Below, piece by piece: positions 9,932 to 20,051 of a DNA stretch of 64,000 nt. Source of the stretch: a virus; the IMG/VR virus record IMGVR_UViG_3300037010_001286, positions 1 to 64,000 of that record. One strand, 5' to 3'. The first letter of the stretch is position 1. Each line of letters begins with the position of its first letter. The notes under the pieces are model-generated. The model saw only the letters and a list, made by a program, of their open reading frames with translations. It searched no databases and was not told where the DNA came from. The translations under genes and the position numbers were made by a program.

Positions 9932-10116
9932 TACTAAAAGTTAGATAATCTAACTTTTTACTTCCTAAAATAATTAAAAAAAGGTGTTTAAAATGGGTAA
10001 AACGTATCGAGATAAAAGTATCTTTAAATCGTTTAAAAAAGAGGTAGATATGCGACCTAAAAGTCACGTTCAAAAAACTAAAAAATCAAAAAAATATCCT
10101 AAAAAAGTAGATAACG

Positions 10117-10446
10117 ATGAGTAAATTTGTAAACTTAACCGCTCACCCTATAAAGTTGCTCAATTTAGGGATTACAATCCCTCATGCAAACCGACCAGTA
10201 AAGGTCACACAAAATCAAAAGTTACTATCGGTAATTGATGGGATACCAATTTATGAAATTGAGTTTGTAGATATTGCAGGATTACCTGAGGAGGAAGAAG
10301 GTACAATTTATATTGTATCTGCTCCAGTGTTAAACTATATCAGACAAAAACTTCCACACCGGAATGATTTTGTAAGTCCCTTTAAGGCTATTAAAGACCC
10401 TATGGGTAAAACAATTGGTTGTCAATCATTTAGAGTAAATGGATAG
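10117..10446 (+). CDS. Conserved-type hypothetical phage protein
   Basis: VNLTAHPI...GLPE..EGTIYIVS pattern typical of a phage family. Confidence 0.75.
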   Translation: MSKFVNLTAHPIKLLNLGITIPHANRPVKVTQNQKLLSVIDGIPIYEIEFVDIAGLPEEEEGTIYIVSAPVLNYIRQKLPHRNDFVSPFKAIKDPMGKTIGCQSFRVNG

Positions 10447-10455
10447 GAGATTATT

Positions 10456-10680
10456 ATGAATATAAAAGAACGTATTCTTATGTATGAAAAAACAAAAGAT
10501 GAAACTTTACTACCTGCTCTTATTGAAGAAGGTGTAGAAATAGATTTAGTTTATGATGATGAAGGTGGAACAATTCGTTTTACTTTTGAGGATGAAACTG
10601 TAAAGAAAATATATTTTAGTGATTACACAAAAGAGTGGATTGATAAAATGGAAGCGTGTGGAGTAGAAATATGGGATTAG
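10456..10680 (+). CDS. Hypothetical protein
   Basis: AGGAG RBS. Confidence 0.7.
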   Translation: MNIKERILMYEKTKDETLLPALIEEGVEIDLVYDDEGGTIRFTFEDETVKKIYFSDYTKEWIDKMEACGVEIWD

Positions 10681-10795
10681 TTATTAGAGCCTCTACAAGC
10701 TCTAAAATCTTCAAGTAATGGTAAAGGTCGTCTAAAAGATTTTGAAGCCTTCTGGGTACCTTAAAATGACGTATACGCAATATAAAGGAGTTAAG

Positions 10796-11035
10796 ATGTC
10801 AAAATATGAACAACAAGTAATAAAACTTACTCAAGAACTACGGATTACACAACAAACAGTAATGCAACTTAAAAGTAAGATTAAAATTCTACAAAAACAG
10901 ATTGACTTATTAGAGTCAAAACAAGAGAGTAAATGTGAGTCTTGTATATGGTTTAAAAATGGGCTTTGTACACATTTTGGAGTTATTACAGGATATGTAA
11001 GTCACTGTAAAAAATTTCAAAGTTATAAGACATAA
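10796..11035 (+). CDS. Coiled-coil protein with Cys cluster
   Basis: ATG after AAGGAG; CESC...C...C. Confidence 0.65.
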   Translation: MSKYEQQVIKLTQELRITQQTVMQLKSKIKILQKQIDLLESKQESKCESCIWFKNGLCTHFGVITGYVSHCKKFQSYKT

Positions 11036-11064
11036 TTTTAATTAAGTTAGTAGAAACTCTCAAA

Positions 11065-11139
11065 AGGGTAATACAATAATAGGTCTTGGGACACCCCTTA
11101 GAAACCTCATAAAATAGGCTTTCAGTTTTCTTTAAGATT
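11065..11139 (+). repeat. 75-bp dispersed repeat, copy A
   Basis: Reverse complement of 34689-34763 with 3 mismatches; partial copy at 6714-6754. Confidence 0.9.
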
Positions 11140-11183
11140 TGCTGATTAATATATAAAATTTGGAAACACTAAAGGAAAATAAA

Positions 11184-11423
11184 ATGAAAAACTCAACATT
11201 AATATATATTCTTGCTGGACTTATATTAGCATTTAGTTTATTACTATTCATCATAAATACCCAGCGTGATATAATTATGGGACAACAACAAGAGTTAGAA
11301 GTATATGAAAGTGACTTAAAAGCTGTTATTAAACAGCATAATAAGTTGAACCACGAAAATTTGCAACTACATGCTTATATTACACGTATTGAAAAAGAAA
11401 TTAATGAAAATAAACACTACTAA
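11184..11423 (+). CDS. Membrane-anchored coiled-coil protein
   Basis: N-terminal hydrophobic helix then heptads. Confidence 0.7.
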   Translation: MKNSTLIYILAGLILAFSLLLFIINTQRDIIMGQQQELEVYESDLKAVIKQHNKLNHENLQLHAYITRIEKEINENKHY

Positions 11424-11473
11424 TAGCTAACATAAAAGGAAAATAATGCTATTTAATTTTAAGTGAGGCTTAT

Positions 11474-12051
11474 ATGAAAATTGAAGTAAATAACCGTACA
11501 CCGCTTATGATGGGATTAATTATTAGTTTTACTTATTTTTATACTTCTATAATGGTAGGTATAACTCAAAATAGAAGTATTCAAGAGTTACAAAGTTCTT
11601 ATGAAAAATCTCAAAAGAACTTAACCAAAACTTATAAAACTTTAGAGGTGGTTACTAAAGAACTTCAGTCTTATAAAGCTACTGAACAATCCTTGATGAG
11701 TCTTGGAGCTTCTTCAGTAGAGGCTAAACAAGTAATAATTGCATCGGAGGCGTATGGTATAAACCCAAAGCATTAGGTAGCTTAATTTATTCAGAGAGTA
11801 ATTTTAAGAAAGTTACCCATAAATTATGCTACGTTCAAGGAAAATGTGCTATTAATCTTGCAGTAAATAAAAACTTATTGTACAATCCATATTCAGAGTT
11901 TGGTAACATCTTAGATGGTGCAAAGTTACTAAGAGATTACTTAGATTTATATGGAACATACCCATTAGCTTTTAAACGCTACAAGGGGTGGTCAAAATTA
12001 GGTGAGAGACAATCTCAAGAAGTTATAAAAATATATAGGAGTTTAAAATGA
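11474..12051 (+). CDS. Membrane-anchored lytic transglycosylase (SLT), split by a -1 frameshift at 11764-11770
   Basis: Frame 0 (TM, coiled coil, AYGINPK) stops at 11776; the -1 frame continues ALGSLIYSESNF...NILDGAKLLRDYLDLYG...RYKG to TGA 12051, overlapping the next ATG. Confidence 0.8.
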
Positions 12052-12488
12052 CTAAAGAAGAATTATATGCTGAGTTATATAATTGTGAGACAGAACATGG
12101 ATTAAATCCTACAGATGTTTACAATTTATTACAGAAATTTTTTGAGTCAAATGTTTGTACCTTTAAAGAAATAAATCGTCACCCTTATGCTGATATATTA
12201 CATCACTGGGTTGAAGGTGTTGATATTCAACAGAATGTTGGAGGACACTGGTTTGCTATTGGTAACATAAATAGAATATTTACTGATGGTAAACTTAAGA
12301 TAAAATCACAAAATCCTATAAAAGAGCCTGATATATATGAGTGGAAATGGGCTATCATTTTTGATGATAAAGCTACAATTACTGATGATTATTATACAGC
12401 AGAAGAATTTTGGGATATATACTCATCTACTGACATTTCTGCTGCTTATAGAATTGACGCTACTCAAAGAATTAGAAAAGGTCAGTAA
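12048..12488 (+). CDS. Hypothetical phage protein
   Basis: AGGAG RBS. Confidence 0.75.
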   Translation: MTKEELYAELYNCETEHGLNPTDVYNLLQKFFESNVCTFKEINRHPYADILHHWVEGVDIQQNVGGHWFAIGNINRIFTDGKLKIKSQNPIKEPDIYEWKWAIIFDDKATITDDYYTAEEFWDIYSSTDISAAYRIDATQRIRKGQ

Positions 12489-12582
12489 TGCTCTATATAA
12501 AAATAAAAAAGCGAAAATACAAAATTGTAATTAAATAAGAGGAAAATAAAATGGTATTAACCAACAGAGGAAGGGAGTTATA

Positions 12583-13374
12583 ATGCAAGAAGAAAAATTA
12601 GTATTAGGAGAAACTAATAAGTTTATACCTGTTGACAAGATAGATTTATATAATGATTCTATCGGGTATGTTGAACTTTATGACGCATCTCATGCAAATG
12701 AAAGTGAAGAACAAAGAATTTGGACTGTAACAACTATTGCTTCATTGGCTTACGGTAACGAATCAGCTAAAAATCCTGAAGCTTTATACGAGCGTATGAA
12801 GTCTATCAAGCATGAAAGCTTATGGGAGTTCATCAGAGATGGGTATGACAGTTGTGGTATTGATTCTTCTATGAGAGCACAAGAATATCTATACGAGCAT
12901 AGATATAGTTGTGACATAGATTGGCATAAGCAAAACATTGCTTGCTTCCGGATCAAGGTACCTATCTTTGTTGCACGTCAGTTCATGCGACATCGTAGCT
13001 TCTCGTACTTAGAGATGAGCCGTAGATATACTAAAGGGAGCAAAGTACCATTTGAATTTTGGTTTCCTAAAAATTTTACTAAGGACTCGGCTCATCAGAA
13101 TGATTGGGTACAAGCATTTAATAGAACATATGATTCTATTATTAAACAAGGATACGAAACTCAAGTCGCTTCAAGATTTTTGCCTCAAACTACCTATACT
13201 GAATTTTATGTAATGGGTGAAATAGATGGTCTTACTAACTTCTTTAAATTAAGACTTGATTCTCATGCTCAGCAGCAGATTCGTGAATGTGCTGAAGCTA
13301 TGTTTGAATTGCTCAATAGACATCAACATAACTTGGCTCTAAGAATACAAAATAAAATTGATTATGTTAAGTAA
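12583..13374 (+). CDS. thyX: Flavin-dependent thymidylate synthase
   Basis: HESLWE, PIFVARQFMRHRSFSYLEMSRRY (RHRx7SxR), LRLDSHAQ. Confidence 0.95.
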   Translation: MQEEKLVLGETNKFIPVDKIDLYNDSIGYVELYDASHANESEEQRIWTVTTIASLAYGNESAKNPEALYERMKSIKHESLWEFIRDGYDSCGIDSSMRAQEYLYEHRYSCDIDWHKQNIACFRIKVPIFVARQFMRHRSFSYLEMSRRYTKGSKVPFEFWFPKNFTKDSAHQNDWVQAFNRTYDSIIKQGYETQVASRFLPQTTYTEFYVMGEIDGLTNFFKLRLDSHAQQQIRECAEAMFELLNRHQHNLALRIQNKIDYVK

Positions 13375-13453
13375 AGAATACAAAATAAAATTGATTATGT
13401 TAAGTAAAGAATACAAAATAAAATTGATTATGTTAAGTAAAGAATACAAAATA
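13341..13453 (+). repeat. 33-bp perfect tandem repeat x3.4
   Basis: AAGAATACAAAATAAAATTGATTATGTTAAGTA at 13341, 13374, 13407, partial at 13440. Confidence 0.95.
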
Positions 13454-13678
13454 CTATTTGGAATAGTAATTGTAGCTGTCTTATTTATTTATTCAGATTG
13501 GGTAAATAAGTAAATAAGGATTAAACATGAAATTAGTATTAGTACATTTACTTAGTATTCAGTTATTTTCTGCCACTATTACATTGCTAATAGATAAGAA
13601 ATAGTCGTATGATAAATATGAAGAAGTATTCATTATATAAGTTAATGATTATGAAGATAAAAACTAAAGGAAAATAAA

Positions 13679-14083
13679 ATGGTAACACTACATGGTATTG
13701 AAGTAAAGGTTGGAGATAAGGTTTGGGATATGTTCACTGGTTGGACAGAAGTAAAAGATCTACTTCCTAATTCCAAATATAGCATATGTACAAGGATTAC
13801 TAATTATACATCTACAGGTAGGGTTCTTAGTGAGCATAAATCACCTACTCTTTTTTGGAATGAATTTGAGATACCTAAAGAAGCCTTTATTAAGCCCCTA
13901 CCTAAACTTGCAGTAGATACAAAGGTTATTGTATGGCTTAATGATAATATAAAACATAGACGTCACTTTTCACACTTTGACGGTAATGGTAAAATATGTT
14001 GCTTTAATGAAGGTACTACATCATTTACAGCTGGTACATTTACTTCATGTTGGGATAATTGGGAACTATATGAAGAGGAATAA
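13679..14083 (+). CDS. Hypothetical phage protein
   Basis: AAGGA RBS. Confidence 0.75.
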   Translation: MVTLHGIEVKVGDKVWDMFTGWTEVKDLLPNSKYSICTRITNYTSTGRVLSEHKSPTLFWNEFEIPKEAFIKPLPKLAVDTKVIVWLNDNIKHRRHFSHFDGNGKICCFNEGTTSFTAGTFTSCWDNWELYEEE

Positions 14084-14183
14084 ATAAGTTAGATAAACAT
14101 TAATAGTATATTTTGTATACTATAATAAAGTATATAGTAATTTAAGATTATATTAAGTATTTTTCGGATACTATATAGTTTTA

Positions 14184-14490
14184 CTAAACTTCCAAGTCAT
14201 TAGATACCTACTTACGGAGAATGACAGCAGTTGGAGTGTAGGGACTCGCGAACTGTAGTTGAGGTTGAAATCTCTCGTGTACATTACTAACGGAAGATGT
14301 ATTAAAACCCCCGTGTAGGAGTTATTATGAAATGGTGGTGCTTTACTGGCATTGAATGTTAATTCTGCATATAAGACTAATCAACGCAGTCTCTAAAAAC
14401 ATTTGCAGTACTCTTAACCTATGAGGCAGTCTATACTAGGTACTAGGCTACGTCCCTGCTTGCATACGTAGCAGGTTAGGAAGTGTTTAG
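14184..14490 (+). ncRNA. Candidate ~300-nt structured ncRNA
   Basis: No ORF of 60 aa or more, richer in G+C than flanks, closing helix and several internal helices (see findings). Confidence 0.55.
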
Positions 14491-14542
14491 ACTAAGTGTT
14501 TTAAAATTTTAACTACTTAGAGTAGCTCCTAACTTATCATGT

Positions 14543-14619
14543 GGGTCAGTAGCTCAGTTGGTTAGAGCCTCCCGCTCATAACGGGAATGTCGCAGGATCA
14601 TGCCCTGTCTGACCCACCA
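14543..14619 (+). tRNA. tRNA with CAT anticodon (probably Ile2, otherwise elongator Met)
   Basis: Cloverleaf GGGTCAG/CTGACCC, anticodon loop CTCATAA, encoded CCA; G1-C72 so not initiator; atypical T-loop ATCATGC. Confidence 0.9.
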
Positions 14620-14775
14620 TAATATTTTCATTGAACTCTTATTTTAAGAATTGACTGAAGATCATTAACTTGACTTCACTTGCTGTGCTTAAGTTCACCG
14701 CATTTTAATATAAAGTATCTCAATGTCTAACTGGTATAATAATCCTGGAAAGACTTATTGAGGTACACCATATAT

Positions 14776-14846
14776 CTCTCCATAGCATAACGGATATGCA
14801 ACAGATTTCTACTCTGTCTATGTTGGTTCGATTCCAGCTGGGGAGA
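14776..14846 (+). tRNA. tRNA-Arg(TCT)
   Basis: Acceptor CTCTCCA/TGGGGAG, anticodon arm ACAGA-TTTCTAC-TCTGT, T-arm GTTGG-TTCGATT-CCAGC; no encoded CCA. Confidence 0.9.
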
Positions 14847-14915
14847 TAACCTCTACATCTTTATTTTTAGTATAAAGTATTCTATAACTCTATAAATTAT
14901 ACCAAAAGGAAACAT

Positions 14916-15488
14916 ATGCAAATAGAGGGATTTAGTAATTATTTTCTAAAAGAAAATGTTGTTATAAATAAAAAAACAAATAAAGCTGTTTCAGTGACAA
15001 TTTCAAAAAAGGGTGAACGACGTTTAAAATTATTTGATGATGTAAGGGGTTGGAGGTCTGTAAATTTATCTGAGGTACTTGCTAATGCAGGATTAAAATT
15101 ATCAATACCAACTACAGCTAGGAAAATATTAAATTCTAATGGTAAGTACTTTATCGATATAACAGGAGAAGTTTATTCGTTTACTAATAAATCTCGACAA
15201 GGAAAAATACTTAAACCTAGAGTTGGCACAGATGGGTATCTACAGGTATCAATAAACTACAAAGGAAAATTAAGAACGTGTAGTGTTCATAAACTAGTTG
15301 CAGAAACATTTTTAATGCCTGATTATGTTCAAAAAAAATTATGTTGTATGCACAAAGATAATAATAAATTAAATTGCCATATTGACAATCTTGAGATAGG
15401 TACATATAGTACCAATAACAAGAATGCCTATCGTGATAATTTGAATACAGGAAATTTAGAATGGAGAACTAAAAAAGCTTTAGGGTAA
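14916..15488 (+). CDS. HNH homing endonuclease (NUMOD4-like plus HNH)
   Basis: GKILKP...GYLQVSI...VHKLVAETF...HKDNNKLNCHIDNLE. Confidence 0.9.
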   Translation: MQIEGFSNYFLKENVVINKKTNKAVSVTISKKGERRLKLFDDVRGWRSVNLSEVLANAGLKLSIPTTARKILNSNGKYFIDITGEVYSFTNKSRQGKILKPRVGTDGYLQVSINYKGKLRTCSVHKLVAETFLMPDYVQKKLCCMHKDNNKLNCHIDNLEIGTYSTNNKNAYRDNLNTGNLEWRTKKALG

Positions 15489-15532
15489 AATCTACCTTCG
15501 TACGGGGAGACCATTTTAAATTTTTACTATAT

Positions 15533-15619
15533 GCCTCGGTGGTGAAATAGGAAGACACAAGGGACTTAAAATCCCTCGGTAGAAATACCGTACCAGTTCG
15601 AGCCTGGTTCGAGGCACCA
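15533..15619 (+). tRNA. tRNA-Leu(TAA)
   Basis: GCCTCGG/TCGAGGC acceptor, AGGGA-CTTAAAA-TCCCT, long variable arm, CCA. Confidence 0.95.
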
Positions 15620-15778
15620 CTTTTATACTTCAATACAAATATTGGTTAAACTCCCATATCACATATTAAAACTTTTTATACTCTTGTACGAAAATAATAG
15701 CCGTATTATTTTTATAGACTGATACCGAAATCATGAAGGTTTGCGGCACTCTAAGAGTATTAAGAAAAGGACTACACA

Positions 15779-16075
15779 ATGATACCTTTTATTTTAACAC
15801 TTTGTGTGCTATTATTATATCACTCAATAAAGGGTATATCTCGCCCTTCTTCTTATAATAACAAGAGAAATATTGAGCGGTGCTGGGGTAGATTAGATAA
15901 GAGTACATTTTTATGTACTCAGGATGGTAGAGTTCATCTAAACCAAGGTATACTTTATATGGATTATATACCGGTTCTTACAAACAAAGAAGGAGGTGTA
16001 GTATTCTTAACAGATATTGCAAGTGTTTTAGAAAAGACAGAAAGGAGTTTAAAAAAAGACTATGCAAAAAGATAG
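15779..16075 (+). CDS. Hypothetical membrane-anchored protein
   Basis: N-terminal hydrophobic segment, AAGGA RBS. Confidence 0.65.
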   Translation: MIPFILTLCVLLLYHSIKGISRPSSYNNKRNIERCWGRLDKSTFLCTQDGRVHLNQGILYMDYIPVLTNKEGGVVFLTDIASVLEKTERSLKKDYAKR

Positions 16076-16289
16076 AAGAACTTACAGTTTAGTTATGCCC
16101 TTTATTTTTTACTTGATGGAGTGTATAGCTATTTCTGAATTAGCTTATTGTATAATTACATTACTACAAGTAAAATCTTTAGTAATTATCTTAGGGATTG
16201 TTGGTACTATTTATATGGTATCAGCAACTTTTAGATTAATTAAAGTTTACAATAGGGGGTTATTTCATGCAAAAAGTAGAGCTGGATAG
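16062..16289 (+). CDS. Hypothetical membrane protein
   Basis: Two hydrophobic segments. Confidence 0.6.
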   Translation: MQKDRRTYSLVMPFIFYLMECIAISELAYCIITLLQVKSLVIILGIVGTIYMVSATFRLIKVYNRGLFHAKSRAG

Positions 16290-16629
16290 GCTAATAGAAA
16301 ATTTAGTCAATAATTACGGCTTTAAGACATTTACTCAACGTAATCTAACATTACACGCAATGGATTTAGCCTTGCAGTTACGAGTTAGAGATATAGCTGG
16401 TAGAACAAAGTATTTTGTAACTATCCATATATACGATTTCTCTAAATTTATCGATACTAATGTTGATTATTCATTAGAAGTATCTTTAAGTTTTTCAGAT
16501 AGGGCAGAGGAAAATCCTAAACCTACCTTATGGATTACAATGAGTTTTACAAATATTGTTGAGGTTTTAGAATTATCTGAAACTTTATGGATAGCACATG
16601 GTAGCCACTACTATGATTATGAAGATTAA
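16267..16629 (+). CDS. Hypothetical protein
   Basis: AGGGGG RBS. Confidence 0.7.
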   Translation: MQKVELDRLIENLVNNYGFKTFTQRNLTLHAMDLALQLRVRDIAGRTKYFVTIHIYDFSKFIDTNVDYSLEVSLSFSDRAEENPKPTLWITMSFTNIVEVLELSETLWIAHGSHYYDYED

Positions 16630-16638
16630 GGGGATATT

Positions 16639-17172
16639 ATGAAAACACATAAAATTGATTATATAAAATGGGAGTCAAGATTAGATTCTGATGTAAGCTT
16701 ACGGTTCTTTTCTACTTTCGATGACCATCCGGAGTATGTTGATAAATTTGTATTAAAATCACACTCAACAAAAGAGTATACAATAGTTCCTAAGGAATTT
16801 ATAGATGAAATTACCTTAGACTTATTATTTAATTCTCCTCAACATGTTGAAGGTTATTATGAAAATAATCAGTATGTTAAAATGATAGATGGTGTACAAG
16901 TTACTGAACCATCACACTCTTCTTTTAAAGAAAAGAAAGGAAAAAATATGAATAACCAAGTGGATGATATGACAAATCCCAATATAGTGTTTTGGATGGT
17001 ATATGGTAAAAATCCTCCTAAACATAAACACTATACACAAAAGAGTGCTATTATAGAGGCTAAACGACTAAGTAGTGAAAACCCTGGGGTTATTTACTAT
17101 GTATTACAAAGTGTTGACGCTTATATGATGCCTGTACCTGAACCACAAAAAGTAGAACTATATAATTCTTAA
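16639..17172 (+). CDS. Hypothetical protein
   Basis: C-terminal FWMVY...P..KH...A..EA.RL phage motif; possible internal start at MNNQV after AAGGA. Confidence 0.7.
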   Translation: MKTHKIDYIKWESRLDSDVSLRFFSTFDDHPEYVDKFVLKSHSTKEYTIVPKEFIDEITLDLLFNSPQHVEGYYENNQYVKMIDGVQVTEPSHSSFKEKKGKNMNNQVDDMTNPNIVFWMVYGKNPPKHKHYTQKSAIIEAKRLSSENPGVIYYVLQSVDAYMMPVPEPQKVELYNS

Positions 17173-17205
17173 AAAATACCTCAAAATAAACAAAAAAGGA
17201 CTATT

Positions 17206-17568
17206 ATGACAATCAAAGAATACATTGAGGATAGATATAATGCTACCTTTACTGATAACGGTAAAGGATTATTTCTAACAGGAATGCTGGGGGTAATTTA
17301 TGAACCATCTCCTGCTAGGTTGGAGGAGCGTTACCAAAATTTGATTAATATGGCAGAGTCTGCTTGGAAAAATAAGAAACTTTTAATTAACCAGGAAGAT
17401 ATGCTATTGTCTATTTCTTCCGGAGCAGAATTAGAACATATGGCTGCTCAGATTAATCTAGCAAAACGATTGAAAAGACGACCTATCCCTAGTGTTGTGG
17501 AACGGGGAAATTTTAATGGTTTAAATTATATAGTCTTTAATGATTTTTATTTTGATGCGTGTGTATAA
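17206..17568 (+). CDS. Hypothetical protein
   Basis: AAGGA RBS. Confidence 0.7.
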   Translation: MTIKEYIEDRYNATFTDNGKGLFLTGMLGVIYEPSPARLEERYQNLINMAESAWKNKKLLINQEDMLLSISSGAELEHMAAQINLAKRLKRRPIPSVVERGNFNGLNYIVFNDFYFDACV

Positions 17569-18050
17569 TGATGTTAAAATACTTTCAACTTCCAAGAAAT
17601 TATAATAACCCTATGTCCTCAGCTTCAGAGACTAAGTTAGAAGTACTTAGTCAGAGGCTAAATGTTGCGCTTACAAAAAATGTTCCGAATACTATGTTTG
17701 TAGAAGGAACAGCAGAGCCAATCTTTAATATTATTAGACAAACTAAGGATATTAAAGAATTTTGGGGAGTAAATTTTGCAGAGTATTTTAAAAGTATATT
17801 TGATAATTCTGATACCTATCAGGTTCTTCCAAAAAAATTTGTATTCATTTATAATGTTGGATTAGAGCGGGCTATAAATACTACATTTTCTTCAAAACTT
17901 TTAAAGGGTCTAATTAAAGACCTTGAAGAAAAAGGTTGTTGGATTATTATAGAGTCTGATTTGACTTATCAAAAATTTCACACACAATATGCTATTGAGA
18001 TTATAAATAAAATTGTACTACCCTTGAAGAAGCCTGAGCCTTTTCTTTAA
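17559..18050 (+). CDS. Degenerate DnaC/IstB-like AAA+ protein
   Basis: FIYNVGLE...LI..LEE...IIIESDL follows the DnaC layout, but Walker A/B are not intact. Confidence 0.5.
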   Translation: MCIMMLKYFQLPRNYNNPMSSASETKLEVLSQRLNVALTKNVPNTMFVEGTAEPIFNIIRQTKDIKEFWGVNFAEYFKSIFDNSDTYQVLPKKFVFIYNVGLERAINTTFSSKLLKGLIKDLEEKGCWIIIESDLTYQKFHTQYAIEIINKIVLPLKKPEPFL

Positions 18051-18054
18051 CCCC

Positions 18055-18076
18055 GTGCAAAGTATATACTTTGCAC
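18055..18076. repeat. Perfect 22-bp palindrome before helicase
   Basis: GTGCAAAGTATATACTTTGCAC. Confidence 0.8.
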
Positions 18077-18097
18077 AAATAATTATAGGAGAACACT

Positions 18098-19486
18098 ATG
18101 AAACTTATTAAAACTGGTGAATATGTAATAGAAACTTCAAGTGTTAATGCTACTACTTTAAAGGATTTAATGGGAACTTTTAGTTACTATAACCCTAAGA
18201 CTGAGCAAACTAAGTCTAGTATTAAAGTTACTAAAGGTTCTATTTATGTACCTAGAAATATTAATAAGCTTACTAAGATATTTGGTAATAACTTAGAGAT
18301 AATTGATAAAACTTTAGTACCCAGTATATCAGCTCCTTTTAGTCTATCTGATACCTTTGATTTAAAACCTGAACAACATGAAGCAATGATAAGTGTTTTG
18401 TCTAAATTATTAAAAGGTGATAATTCTGCTGTACTAAAAGCACCCCCTGGGTTTGGTAAATCTTATACATTACCTTACGTTGTAAATTCTTTACAAACAA
18501 ATACATTGATTATTGTAGATCGAACAAACCTAGCAGAGCAAATGATGAGTGAATTTTCAGCTAATTGTAAAGACCTATCTATTACTGTACTTGGAGGTAA
18601 AAATAAAGTACCTACAAGTGTAACTATTGTTACCTTTCAGTTCCTTATTAGAAATAAGGATTTTATGAAAACTTATAGAGATTTCTTTGGTTTTATTGTA
18701 GTAGATGAATGTCACGTTATTGGTAGTGATGTTTTTACTACTGTAGTAGGAAAATTTAATGCTAAATATCGTTTGGGTCTTTCCGCTACACCTACACGTT
18801 CAGACTTTATGACAGAACTTCTATTTGATGTAATGGGTACAAGTTTTGTAAGTGGTAAAAGTGCTGATAACTTAAATGTTAATATGGTTATGGTAGATCA
18901 CCCCGCAAAGTTTGCGTATGTATATGGTAACTATCGAAATGAATATGCTAAGTTTTTAATATACAAAGGAATAGCTTTAGATGTTAAAAGTATCTGTAAA
19001 AATTTTAAGACCCTTAATAGATTTGGGTTAATTTATATAACAGAAACTGATGCTCAACTATATTACGCATGGGTATTAAGAAAAGCTGGATTGAGGGTAG
19101 GAGTTATTAATAAAGATACCCCCAAAGAAGATAGACTACTATATATCAAAAAAATGGAAATAGAAGAGCTTGATATAATAATTTCAGGAGCTATTCTACA
19201 AAAAGGAATATCTATTAAAAGACTAGACTATATTATAAACCTATCTAATTTAACTAAGGAGGCACATGAGCAATTGGTAGGAAGATTGCGTAGACATCAT
19301 AAAACAAAAAAAGAACCACTATTTCTTGATTTTTTATTTGGAGGTCATGCCCTATCTAAATCTTGGGATAGGGAGGAGTTAGCACGTAATCTAAAAAGAG
19401 AACATTCTGATAAGTTTACTAAGATAACAATTCAAAAACTTTTAATAGAAATTAAGAAACAATCTGATAAAGTAAAAAAAACATAA
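18098..19486 (+). CDS. SF2 DNA helicase (UvsW/T5 D10-like)
   Basis: APPGFGKS, VVDECH, GLSATP, QLVGRLRR. Confidence 0.92.
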   Translation: MKLIKTGEYVIETSSVNATTLKDLMGTFSYYNPKTEQTKSSIKVTKGSIYVPRNINKLTKIFGNNLEIIDKTLVPSISAPFSLSDTFDLKPEQHEAMISVLSKLLKGDNSAVLKAPPGFGKSYTLPYVVNSLQTNTLIIVDRTNLAEQMMSEFSANCKDLSITVLGGKNKVPTSVTIVTFQFLIRNKDFMKTYRDFFGFIVVDECHVIGSDVFTTVVGKFNAKYRLGLSATPTRSDFMTELLFDVMGTSFVSGKSADNLNVNMVMVDHPAKFAYVYGNYRNEYAKFLIYKGIALDVKSICKNFKTLNRFGLIYITETDAQLYYAWVLRKAGLRVGVINKDTPKEDRLLYIKKMEIEELDIIISGAILQKGISIKRLDYIINLSNLTKEAHEQLVGRLRRHHKTKKEPLFLDFLFGGHALSKSWDREELARNLKREHSDKFTKITIQKLLIEIKKQSDKVKKT

Positions 19487-19496
19487 AAGGATACGC

Positions 19497-20051
19497 ATGG
19501 AACTTGAAATATCTAGCAATAGTAAACCACCTAAAACTGTGTACTATGATGAGAAAAATAAGACTTATAGTATTTATATCTTTGATGATATTGGATACCC
19601 GTTTCAGTATATTAAAGTATTACAAGCATTAGACAAAGCATCAGCTGATAGCACAATTAAAATCTTTATTGGCTCTAACGGAGGTCTATTAGATACTACA
19701 ATTGCTTTAGTAGAACATATAAAAAATTGTAAAGGTACTACAATTGCATACGTAAGTTTTGCAGCCAGTGCTGCTACTATATTAGCTCTTGCTTGTGATA
19801 AAGTTTATCTATATCAGAACTCATACTTTATGTGTCATAACTTCTCAACAAGAGGTTCAGGAAAAGGCGCAGAATTAAAGGCTAGAGCTGCCTTTGATGA
19901 TGCGTGGTCTAAGCTTGTCTTTGCTAGTTTGTACAAAGGATTTATGACTGAAGCTGAGATTGATGAAATGCGTAATGATAAAGACTTTTGGATGCTTCAA
20001 CCTGAAGTGGAAAATAGACTTCGAGCAATTGATAAACTTTTAGAACAATGA
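19497..20051 (+). CDS. ClpP-like serine protease
   Basis: IGSNGG, AASAATIL, FMCHN. Confidence 0.85.
   Translation: MELEISSNSKPPKTVYYDEKNKTYSIYIFDDIGYPFQYIKVLQALDKASADSTIKIFIGSNGGLLDTTIALVEHIKNCKGTTIAYVSFAASAATILALACDKVYLYQNSYFMCHNFSTRGSGKGAELKARAAFDDAWSKLVFASLYKGFMTEAEIDEMRNDKDFWMLQPEVENRLRAIDKLLEQ

Follow-up and report, generated by a model that had tools for sequence, protein, structure and literature searches.

Transfer RNA (tRNA) genes are known to be accompanied by other stable or regulatory RNAs in a few systems; the tRNA cluster of phage T4 encodes two stable RNAs of unknown function and the E. coli tRNA spacer 3'ETS-leuZ is a sponge of small RNAs. To our knowledge, the leaders of the tRNA regions of uncultured phages are almost unstudied. 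The large non-coding RNAs GOLLD and ROOL are reported to lie often near tRNAs and in prophages, ROOL having a mean length of 581 nucleotides (nt) and many junctions (PMC5737381). The present analysis concerns the interval 14184-14490 in a 64,000-nt stretch of virus DNA (hereafter referred to as the window), which constitutes the first 64 kb of the 82,148-bp IMG/VR virus record IMGVR_UViG_3300037010_001286. The interval precedes a cluster of three tRNA genes, and an initial annotation, made from the letters of the window, had proposed for it a novel structured RNA of ~300 nt.

With moderate confidence, the interval is read here as the central part of a mosaic, untranslated 5' leader of ~400 nt, which belongs to a unit of tRNA-Met, tRNA-Arg, an HNH homing-endonuclease-like open reading frame (ORF) and tRNA-Leu, and whose conserved hairpins would act in cis. 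On present evidence the leader is of an ordinary kind, and its structural signal, modest yet testable, is found at coordinates other than those proposed.

Conserved blocks and hairpins of the proposed leader

The interval falls within 14084-14915, the longest non-coding gap that the window has, between an ORF of 134 amino acids (aa) with no assigned function (13679-14083) and the tRNA-Met gene (Table 1). The leader, the tRNAs, the HNH ORF and all the neighbouring genes are on the plus strand. The position is that of a leader, on the tRNA strand, upstream of tRNA-Met and downstream of a promoter-like site, with no terminator in between, and the initial annotation was accurate in placing the region behind a promoter-like stretch at the head of the tRNA cluster. 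The promoter is a consensus match, scoring 9/12 in a scan whose overall yield, 23 sites, does not exceed chance (16.7±3.7). No terminator-like site was detected on the plus strand between 14084 and 15830, and the first one encountered on that strand within 13300-16300 lies behind tRNA-Leu, at 15830.

Of the searches for homologues, only an IMG/VR scan with a 19-mer taken from 14478-14496 was productive, retrieving two contigs, designated G004 and G005. G005 is a 99.99%-identical fragment of G004, and there is therefore only one independent relative. The other DNA matches (E-values up to 1e-5) between the phage of the window and G004 (38,090 bp, G+C 0.32) are confined to early genes, at 70-80% identity, and to part of tRNA-Leu. 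In the leader region the similarity is limited to three blocks, 14134-14153, 14236-14290 and 14466-14560. The last of these is the best DNA match between both genomes (87% identity over 95 nt, with 91% over 75 nt in 14466-14542), and 14236-14290 is 78% identical with a core in which 24 of 25 positions agree. The segment 14164-14233 cannot be aligned with G004 (4-8 of 20 positions identical per sliding window), and the 163-169 nt between the two larger blocks are replaced in G004 by about 25-35 unrelated nt. The leader is a mosaic of five parts, comprising a promoter-proximal block, an unconserved 5' segment, a block of three hairpins, a 163-nt insert and a long hairpin.

The three small hairpins of block 14234-14302 are referred to here as 0, a and b. 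The 16 pairs of this block are formed in both phages (32 of 32 cells paired) and three of them have changed on both sides, as compared to 31-58% of cells paired and 0-1 both-sided changes in the slid controls. All three both-sided changes occur in hairpin b (U-A to G-C, C-G to U-A and U-A to C-G), in whose stem the six substitutions make up three complementary pairs with none broken. Its loop starts with ACUAA and ends with GGAA in both phages, with a length of 10 nt here and 11 nt in G004, and the hairpin is present in the minimum free energy (MFE) structure predicted for 14255-14306 as well as in the predicted folds of G004. Hairpin a has an invariant stem, its sole substitution being in the loop, and hairpin 0 carries a single one-sided change, from A-U to G·U.

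The long imperfect hairpin, hairpin c, extends past the 3' boundary drawn by the initial annotation. Its consensus pairs are formed in all 42 of 42 cells with none broken, and one compensatory pair is found at 14499-14512 (U-A to C-G), as against 17-55% of cells paired and no compensatory pair in the slid controls. The MFE z-score is -4.76 in G004, a stability that 0 of 200 shuffles attain; for the window the score is -1.89, with 9 of 200 shuffles as stable. The predicted duplex has 21 consensus pairs (25 in G004) with internal loops that leave runs of 9, 3 and 9 bp, and in silico it attains the length of about two helical turns that is associated with RNase III stems. A covariance model of hairpin c scores 105.8 bits on the plus strand and 23.4 bits on the minus strand, and G·U pairs, which the opposite strand would carry as C×A mismatches, are present in hairpins a, b and c; an RNA of the tRNA strand is therefore favoured over a DNA palindrome.

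Further copies were sought in several ways. The covariance model of hairpin c found no other copy in 526,056 bases scanned, and IMG/VR pattern scans with three other 18-22-mers gave 0 matches. Among GenBank phages, no match was obtained by blastn with 14100-14540, with 10000-20000 or with the G004 leader, nor by tblastn with the neighbouring 134-aa protein. IMG/VR loci reached through neighbouring proteins numbered 1, 2 and 0, none of them resembling the element. Sixty metagenome loci carrying relatives of the 134-aa gene gave no match to the element and were poor in synteny, and the 19 closest of them had no G+C-rich gap behind the homologue of that gene. An 18-mer match in IMG/VR and a 20-mer match in Roseivirga spongicola were set aside as chance matches with no flanking similarity. 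A 430-nt ORF-free gap in the more distant relative G003 (L004 2511-2940) was dropped as an analogue, having no similarity to the leader and a G+C content barely above that of G003. No description of such a leader element was found in the literature covered, to which the supplementary motif lists of PMC5737381 do not belong.

Table 1. Features of the proposed leader and of the tRNA cluster in the window
Feature	Positions	Strand	Remarks
Promoter-like stretch: TAAACA, 16 nt, TATACT, then overlapping TATAAT (14121-14126)	14094-14126	+	consensus scan
Block P, copy of promoter-module motif	14134-14153	+	18/20 positions same as G004
Non-conserved 5' segment, with 5' strand of proposed closing helix and 14196/14220 hairpin	14184-14233	+	single copy in the DNA compared
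Mini-ORF, TTG, 19 aa	14231-14290	+	frame and stop kept in G004 (MNSLIVVEVVISHGYY versus ..DSRTVVEVEISRVHY)
Hairpin 0: 4-bp stem, 6-nt loop	14234-14247	+	4/4 pairs in both phages; weak alone
Hairpin a: 5-bp stem, tetraloop UGWA	14261-14274	+	inside core 24/25 identical
Hairpin b: 7-bp stem (14279-14285 with 14296-14302)	14279-14302	+	7/7 pairs in both phages
Phage-specific insert, with proposed long helix, 14447/14466 hairpin and 11-aa mini-ORF	14303-14465	+	no other copy in the DNA compared
Mini-ORF, ATG, 11 aa, AGGAG 5 nt upstream	14327-14362	+	within phage-specific insert
Hairpin c: long imperfect hairpin, 21 consensus pairs	14471-14537	+	ends 5 nt before tRNA-Met
Mini-ORF, GTG, 9 aa, with AGA and TTA codons (cf. 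tRNA-Arg and tRNA-Leu of the cluster)	14483-14512	+	in hairpin c
tRNA-Met (CAU)	14543-14619	+	first of cluster; ARAGORN; Rfam tRNA model 60.7 bits
tRNA-Arg (UCU)	14775-14847	+	ARAGORN, Rfam
NUMOD4/HNH homing-endonuclease-like ORF	14916-15488	+	between tRNA genes; Pfam NUMOD4 3.5e-06
tRNA-Leu (UAA)	15533-15619	+	last of cluster; ARAGORN, Rfam

Non-coding content and the proposed fold of 14184-14490

The interval had been described as ORF-free and richer in G+C than its flanks, and both descriptions hold. The only ORF of at least 25 aa (ATG, GTG or TTG start) that touches it is a 37-aa frame on the minus strand (14171-14284). The longest stop-free frames in the interval are of 33 codons on the plus strand and 69 codons on the minus strand, and no homologue was found for the latter. 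Its G+C content is 0.41, compared to 0.15 in the 100 nt before it (14084-14183), 0.32 genome-wide and 0.32 in coding DNA. Much of the G+C excess of the leader sits in the two window-specific segments (0.40 in 14184-14235 and 0.39 in 14297-14465), the leader of G004 having a G+C content of 0.296.

Known RNA families were searched with the covariance models of Rfam 15, in a comparison that included GOLLD, ROOL, transfer-messenger RNA (tmRNA), RNase P, signal recognition particle (SRP) RNA, group I and group II introns, HEARO and Y RNA. At the gathering threshold the window yielded only tRNAs, in agreement with the earlier statement that signatures of tmRNA, RNase P, SRP and introns are lacking. 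At E-values up to 10 there were zero matches inside 14184-14443 and 0 matches for 14180-14345, and the G004 homologue of the leader matched no Rfam family. A match of SNORA43 to 14444-14542, with 14.2 bits against a cut-off of 80, was regarded as noise. ARAGORN found no tRNA or tmRNA in the interval at thresholds of 100%, 90% and 80%. A decayed tRNA was considered for a 'tRNA-Pro' called by ARAGORN at 70%, and was rejected as noise, a call being obtained in 285 of 500 shuffles and nothing with the Rfam tRNA model at E-values up to 10. An origin as a pseudogene was likewise rejected, tblastn of 2,268 ORF fragments from the loci retrieved against the interval giving only noise.

The initial annotation had further proposed that 14184-14490 forms one globular non-coding RNA, with a closing helix (14184/14479), a hairpin 14196/14220, a long helix (14344-14360 with 14398-14410), a hairpin 14447/14466 and a pseudoknot between the loop of the latter and 14238. 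Every coordinate and string given for it is present in the sequence, as checked base by base, and the strings pair as described; taken with the G+C-rich, ORF-free nature of the region and the lack of an Rfam match, this is what speaks for such an RNA. The predicted stability of the interval is, however, unremarkable, with an MFE z-score of -0.66 and 26 of 100 shuffles as stable. Values of -0.39 for the leader 14129-14542, of -0.88 for the reverse strand and of -0.98 to +0.49 for five plus-strand pieces were obtained, the three tRNAs serving as positive controls (-2.16, -3.04 and -2.21). Perfect Watson-Crick stems of at least 6 bp number 9, as compared to 10.5±3.1 in 200 dinucleotide shuffles, and the longest reaches 7 bp, where the shuffles average 7.6. 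Prediction of the closing helix requires the sequence to end at 14490; with 14491-14542 added, the 3' strand of this helix pairs instead in a local hairpin. A 6-bp pseudoknot with one G·U pair is expected by simple arithmetic about once by chance in 300 nt.

Comparison with G004 leads in the same direction. A gap is found on one or both sides of 26 of the 42 proposed pairs, namely all 13 of the long helix, the 7 of the 14447/14466 hairpin and the 6 of the pseudoknot. The 16 others belong to the closing helix and to the 14196/14220 hairpin, which lies in the segment unalignable with G004; 6 of them are still standard pairs, which is the chance level for an unalignable A+T-rich stretch. Strain variants also appear to lack the middle segment (see below). 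A single RNA of ~300 nt with this architecture is thus considered extremely improbable. The suggestion of a new or diverged class of non-coding RNA retains in its favour the lack of an Rfam match and the existence of covarying hairpins; these are located elsewhere, and do not form part of one ~300-nt RNA. The collection of homologues, which the initial annotation had recommended, yielded the one independent relative, in which none of the proposed helices is supported and other hairpins (b and c) show compensatory changes. A fold drawn by eye in a G+C-rich gap can, as this case illustrates, be wholly a product of chance even when real conserved hairpins exist elsewhere in the same stretch.

Neighbouring genes and strain variation

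The record carries direct terminal repeats, and its genes use code 11 and are tightly packed. A 2078-aa ORF encodes a tape-measure protein, and the virus is therefore a tailed phage. Its DNA polymerase has at most ~30% identity to that of any GenBank phage; an assignment as an N4-like phage, made from these matches, was abandoned once the 2078-aa ORF was recognised as a tape-measure protein. The closest homologue of the gene upstream of the leader is P0002 (66% identity). Behind the ThyX gene, at 13341-13458, a 33-bp unit is repeated in 3.5 tandem copies of 96-100% identity, in an iteron-like manner. In the more distant relative G003 (L004 3340-3610), a weak or degenerate tRNA-like cluster is located upstream of the ThyX gene, with 30.5 and 18.6 bits in the Rfam tRNA model and none called by ARAGORN; one of its members has a CAU anticodon arm like that of the tRNA-Met of the window.

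In the tRNA cluster, the Rfam run over the whole window at the gathering threshold recovered two of the three tRNAs, and tRNA-Met was obtained only in a smaller run by E-value, apparently through filtering in the tool rather than for a biological reason. The T loop of this tRNA is AUCAUGC in place of the usual UUCRANY, and positions 54 and 58 look swapped (A54 and U58 in the ARAGORN drawing). The spacer between tRNA-Met and tRNA-Arg (14625-14774) has an MFE z-score of -2.11 (7 of 200 shuffles as stable), a signal that arises from a long hairpin at ~14715-14770 ending right before tRNA-Arg. Counting hairpin c before tRNA-Met, a long hairpin thus stands ahead of two of the three tRNAs. The HNH ORF has, in addition to its NUMOD4 domain, an HNH_3 match (9.4e-05) that falls slightly short of the Pfam cut-off.

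The corresponding region of G004 (L082, minus strand, 4852-4795) has a 58-nt tRNA-like sequence in place of tRNA-Met. It comprises an acceptor stem, a D arm and a canonical T arm with no anticodon arm, it was missed by ARAGORN and by the Rfam tRNA model (E-values up to 10), and over its first 18 nt it is similar to the beginning of the tRNA-Met of the window. Loose contig ends suggest that further hybrid tRNA forms exist in the mats. The motif TTTAAGATTAWTAT is present in five copies on one strand of G004, and its version in the window occurs there exactly once. In G004 the five copies belong to a promoter module of ~50-120 nt in the early region (L093 4657-9246, minus strand), which also carries an extended -10 element, TGATATAAT. 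The promoters at the left end of the window are of the TTGACA-17-TATACT type, unlike these modules.

DNA nearly identical to that of the phage is present in two microbial-mat metagenome runs, and co-occurring strains appear to differ in the 163-nt middle of the leader. In both runs there is a contig form in which 14276 is joined directly to 14475, with the substitutions 14512 A>G and 14526 C>A, as in the layout of G004; in run X2 a more abundant contig form joins 14301 to 14395. The sides of these joints are short (20-23 nt), with 80% likeness, and are weak when taken alone, the 14276/14475 joint being corroborated by the G004 sequence. A bump in contig depth at 14212-14312 is uninterpretable, as the depths sum over organisms. 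The HNH/NUMOD4 gene (14860-15430) has an ~84%-identical variant in both metagenomes (72 differences in 458 nt), which in run X2 outnumbers the form of the window.

Interpretation and comparison with known systems

In the preferred reading, the leader would be transcribed together with the tRNAs, and RNase P would remove it at 14542/14543, as expected from established tRNA biology. The conserved hairpins probably act in cis on the precursor, in its processing, folding or stability. Hairpin c may be a site of RNase III-type, double-strand-specific processing or, alternatively, a 3' cap that shields the released leader, and the small hairpins may help the precursor to fold or may bind a factor.

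Several observations weigh against this reading. The covariation is that of two independent sequences, for which the shuffle control is nearly powerless; the observed pairing is reached by 60 of 500 shuffles for block 14234-14302 and by 260 of 500 for hairpin c. Taken by themselves, hairpins a and b show no energy signal (z-scores of 0.05 and -0.46), that of hairpin c is weaker in the window than in G004, and what variation there is in hairpins 0 and a does not put their pairing to the test. Three pairs of the 25-pair fold of G004, outside the 21-pair consensus, are mismatched here (14472×14536, 14486×14526 and 14501×14510). The conservation of the blocks could in part reflect an exchange of modules between co-occurring phages, the promoter-module motif being typical of G004, with five copies, and present once here.

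The main rival is a neutral mosaic spacer, which is judged unlikely on balance yet deserves serious consideration. According to it, the tRNA cassette and its flanks are swapped between co-infecting phages, perhaps with the aid of the HNH endonuclease, the conserved blocks are recent tracts of co-conversion and the rest is indel debris with no function. The indel variants in the co-occurring strains fit this explanation, particularly the 14276/14475 joint with the layout and both substitutions of G004, as do the G004-type promoter motif, the different genes behind the shared block (tRNA-Met here, an armless tRNA-like sequence in G004) and the HNH gene inside the cluster. A precedent is available in SegB, the homing endonuclease of the T4 tRNA cluster, which is reported to drive preferred inheritance of that region (PMC2330249). 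Pure neutrality is nevertheless opposed by the stem of hairpin b, where every substitution is paired, by the retention of every consensus pair in hairpin c, and by an identity that is patchy (91%, 78%, unalignable) and not that of one uniform recent tract. Selection at the level of peptides, as small peptide genes or as a leader-peptide attenuator, is an exceedingly improbable explanation of the same blocks. The frame and stop codon of mini-ORF 14231-14290 are common to G004, and the frame of 14483-14512 is kept with its stop changed from TAA to TAG. In the former, however, 7 of 8 changed codons are non-synonymous and the substitutions number 3, 5 and 3 at codon positions 1, 2 and 3, a non-coding pattern that therefore points to constraint at the nucleotide level. 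The 11-aa ORF is confined to the phage-specific insert, the 9-aa ORF has AGGA just 1 nt from its GTG, which leaves no usable ribosome-binding spacing, and no terminator follows any of the mini-ORFs.

Constraint on the RNA could also reflect a stable, trans-acting small RNA cut from the tRNA precursor, an alternative that appears quite improbable. Its core would consist of 14234-14302 and 14466-14542, be released by RNase P, be kept stable by the 3' hairpin and bind either a protein or RNA; the 163-nt insert would then be a variable domain that the RNA tolerates, the core halves being contiguous but for ~30 nt in G004. The conservation and covariation of both blocks are consistent with this, the compact G004 version folds well (z-scores of -3.49 over 148 nt and of -2.62 for the leader of 243 nt), and a hairpin at the very end, with 5 nt between it and the RNase P site, has the shape that a protected 3' end would be expected to take. 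These z-scores derive, however, almost wholly from hairpin c, and the candidate RNA, predicted from sequence, is carried by only two phages in everything searched. A related and broader suggestion, tentative and rather unlikely, is that both blocks represent the core of an undescribed phage RNA module that in unrelated phages of microbial mats precedes genes for tRNAs or tRNA-like sequences, with room for a variable insert between its halves, and that would work as a stable leader-derived RNA or in cis on RNA polymerase or processing enzymes. An element acting as double-stranded DNA, with the inverted repeat 14471-14537 as an operator, a recombination site or a homing site, would agree with an imperfect palindrome adjoining a cluster that contains a homing-endonuclease-like gene, and a DNA palindrome, no less than an RNA hairpin, is maintained by the compensatory changes; the G·T pairs in stems a, b and c and the strand bias of the covariance model make it highly unlikely.

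If the blocks are functional, they would provide a small new example of a phage controlling or processing its own tRNA precursors. The region in any case documents very local mosaicism around a homing-endonuclease gene, in the form of indels, swapped tRNA genes and a shared promoter module.

Among the known systems, GOLLD (RF01998) and ROOL (RF03087) resemble the element in being non-coding and near tRNA genes in phage DNA. The element is neither of them, having no Rfam match and no multi-domain fold, with only short hairpins conserved. The stable RNAs of phage T4, species 1 and 2, provide another instance of non-tRNA, non-coding sequence by phage tRNA genes, whereas the element described here heads its cluster. 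The tiny ORFs in the leader of the tRNA cluster, one of them with AGA and TTA codons, are reminiscent of leader-peptide attenuators; the differences are that a terminator is lacking here, that ribosome-binding sites are poor or absent and that the substitutions follow a non-coding pattern. The RNase III stems of the rRNA operon and of the early region of phage T7 are similar to hairpin c, predicted from its sequence to be an imperfect duplex of 21-25 bp just upstream of a stable RNA, but hairpin c is broken by its internal loops into short runs. The closest likeness in arrangement may be sought in the 5' leaders and external transcribed spacers of tRNA operons, processed by RNase P with RNase E or RNase III, which are similarly non-coding, on the tRNA strand, extended from a promoter-like site to the first tRNA and provided with hairpins. 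Compared to these, the present leader is unusually long (~400 nt) and G+C-rich for its genome, and two of its blocks are better conserved than any coding DNA common to the phage and G004.

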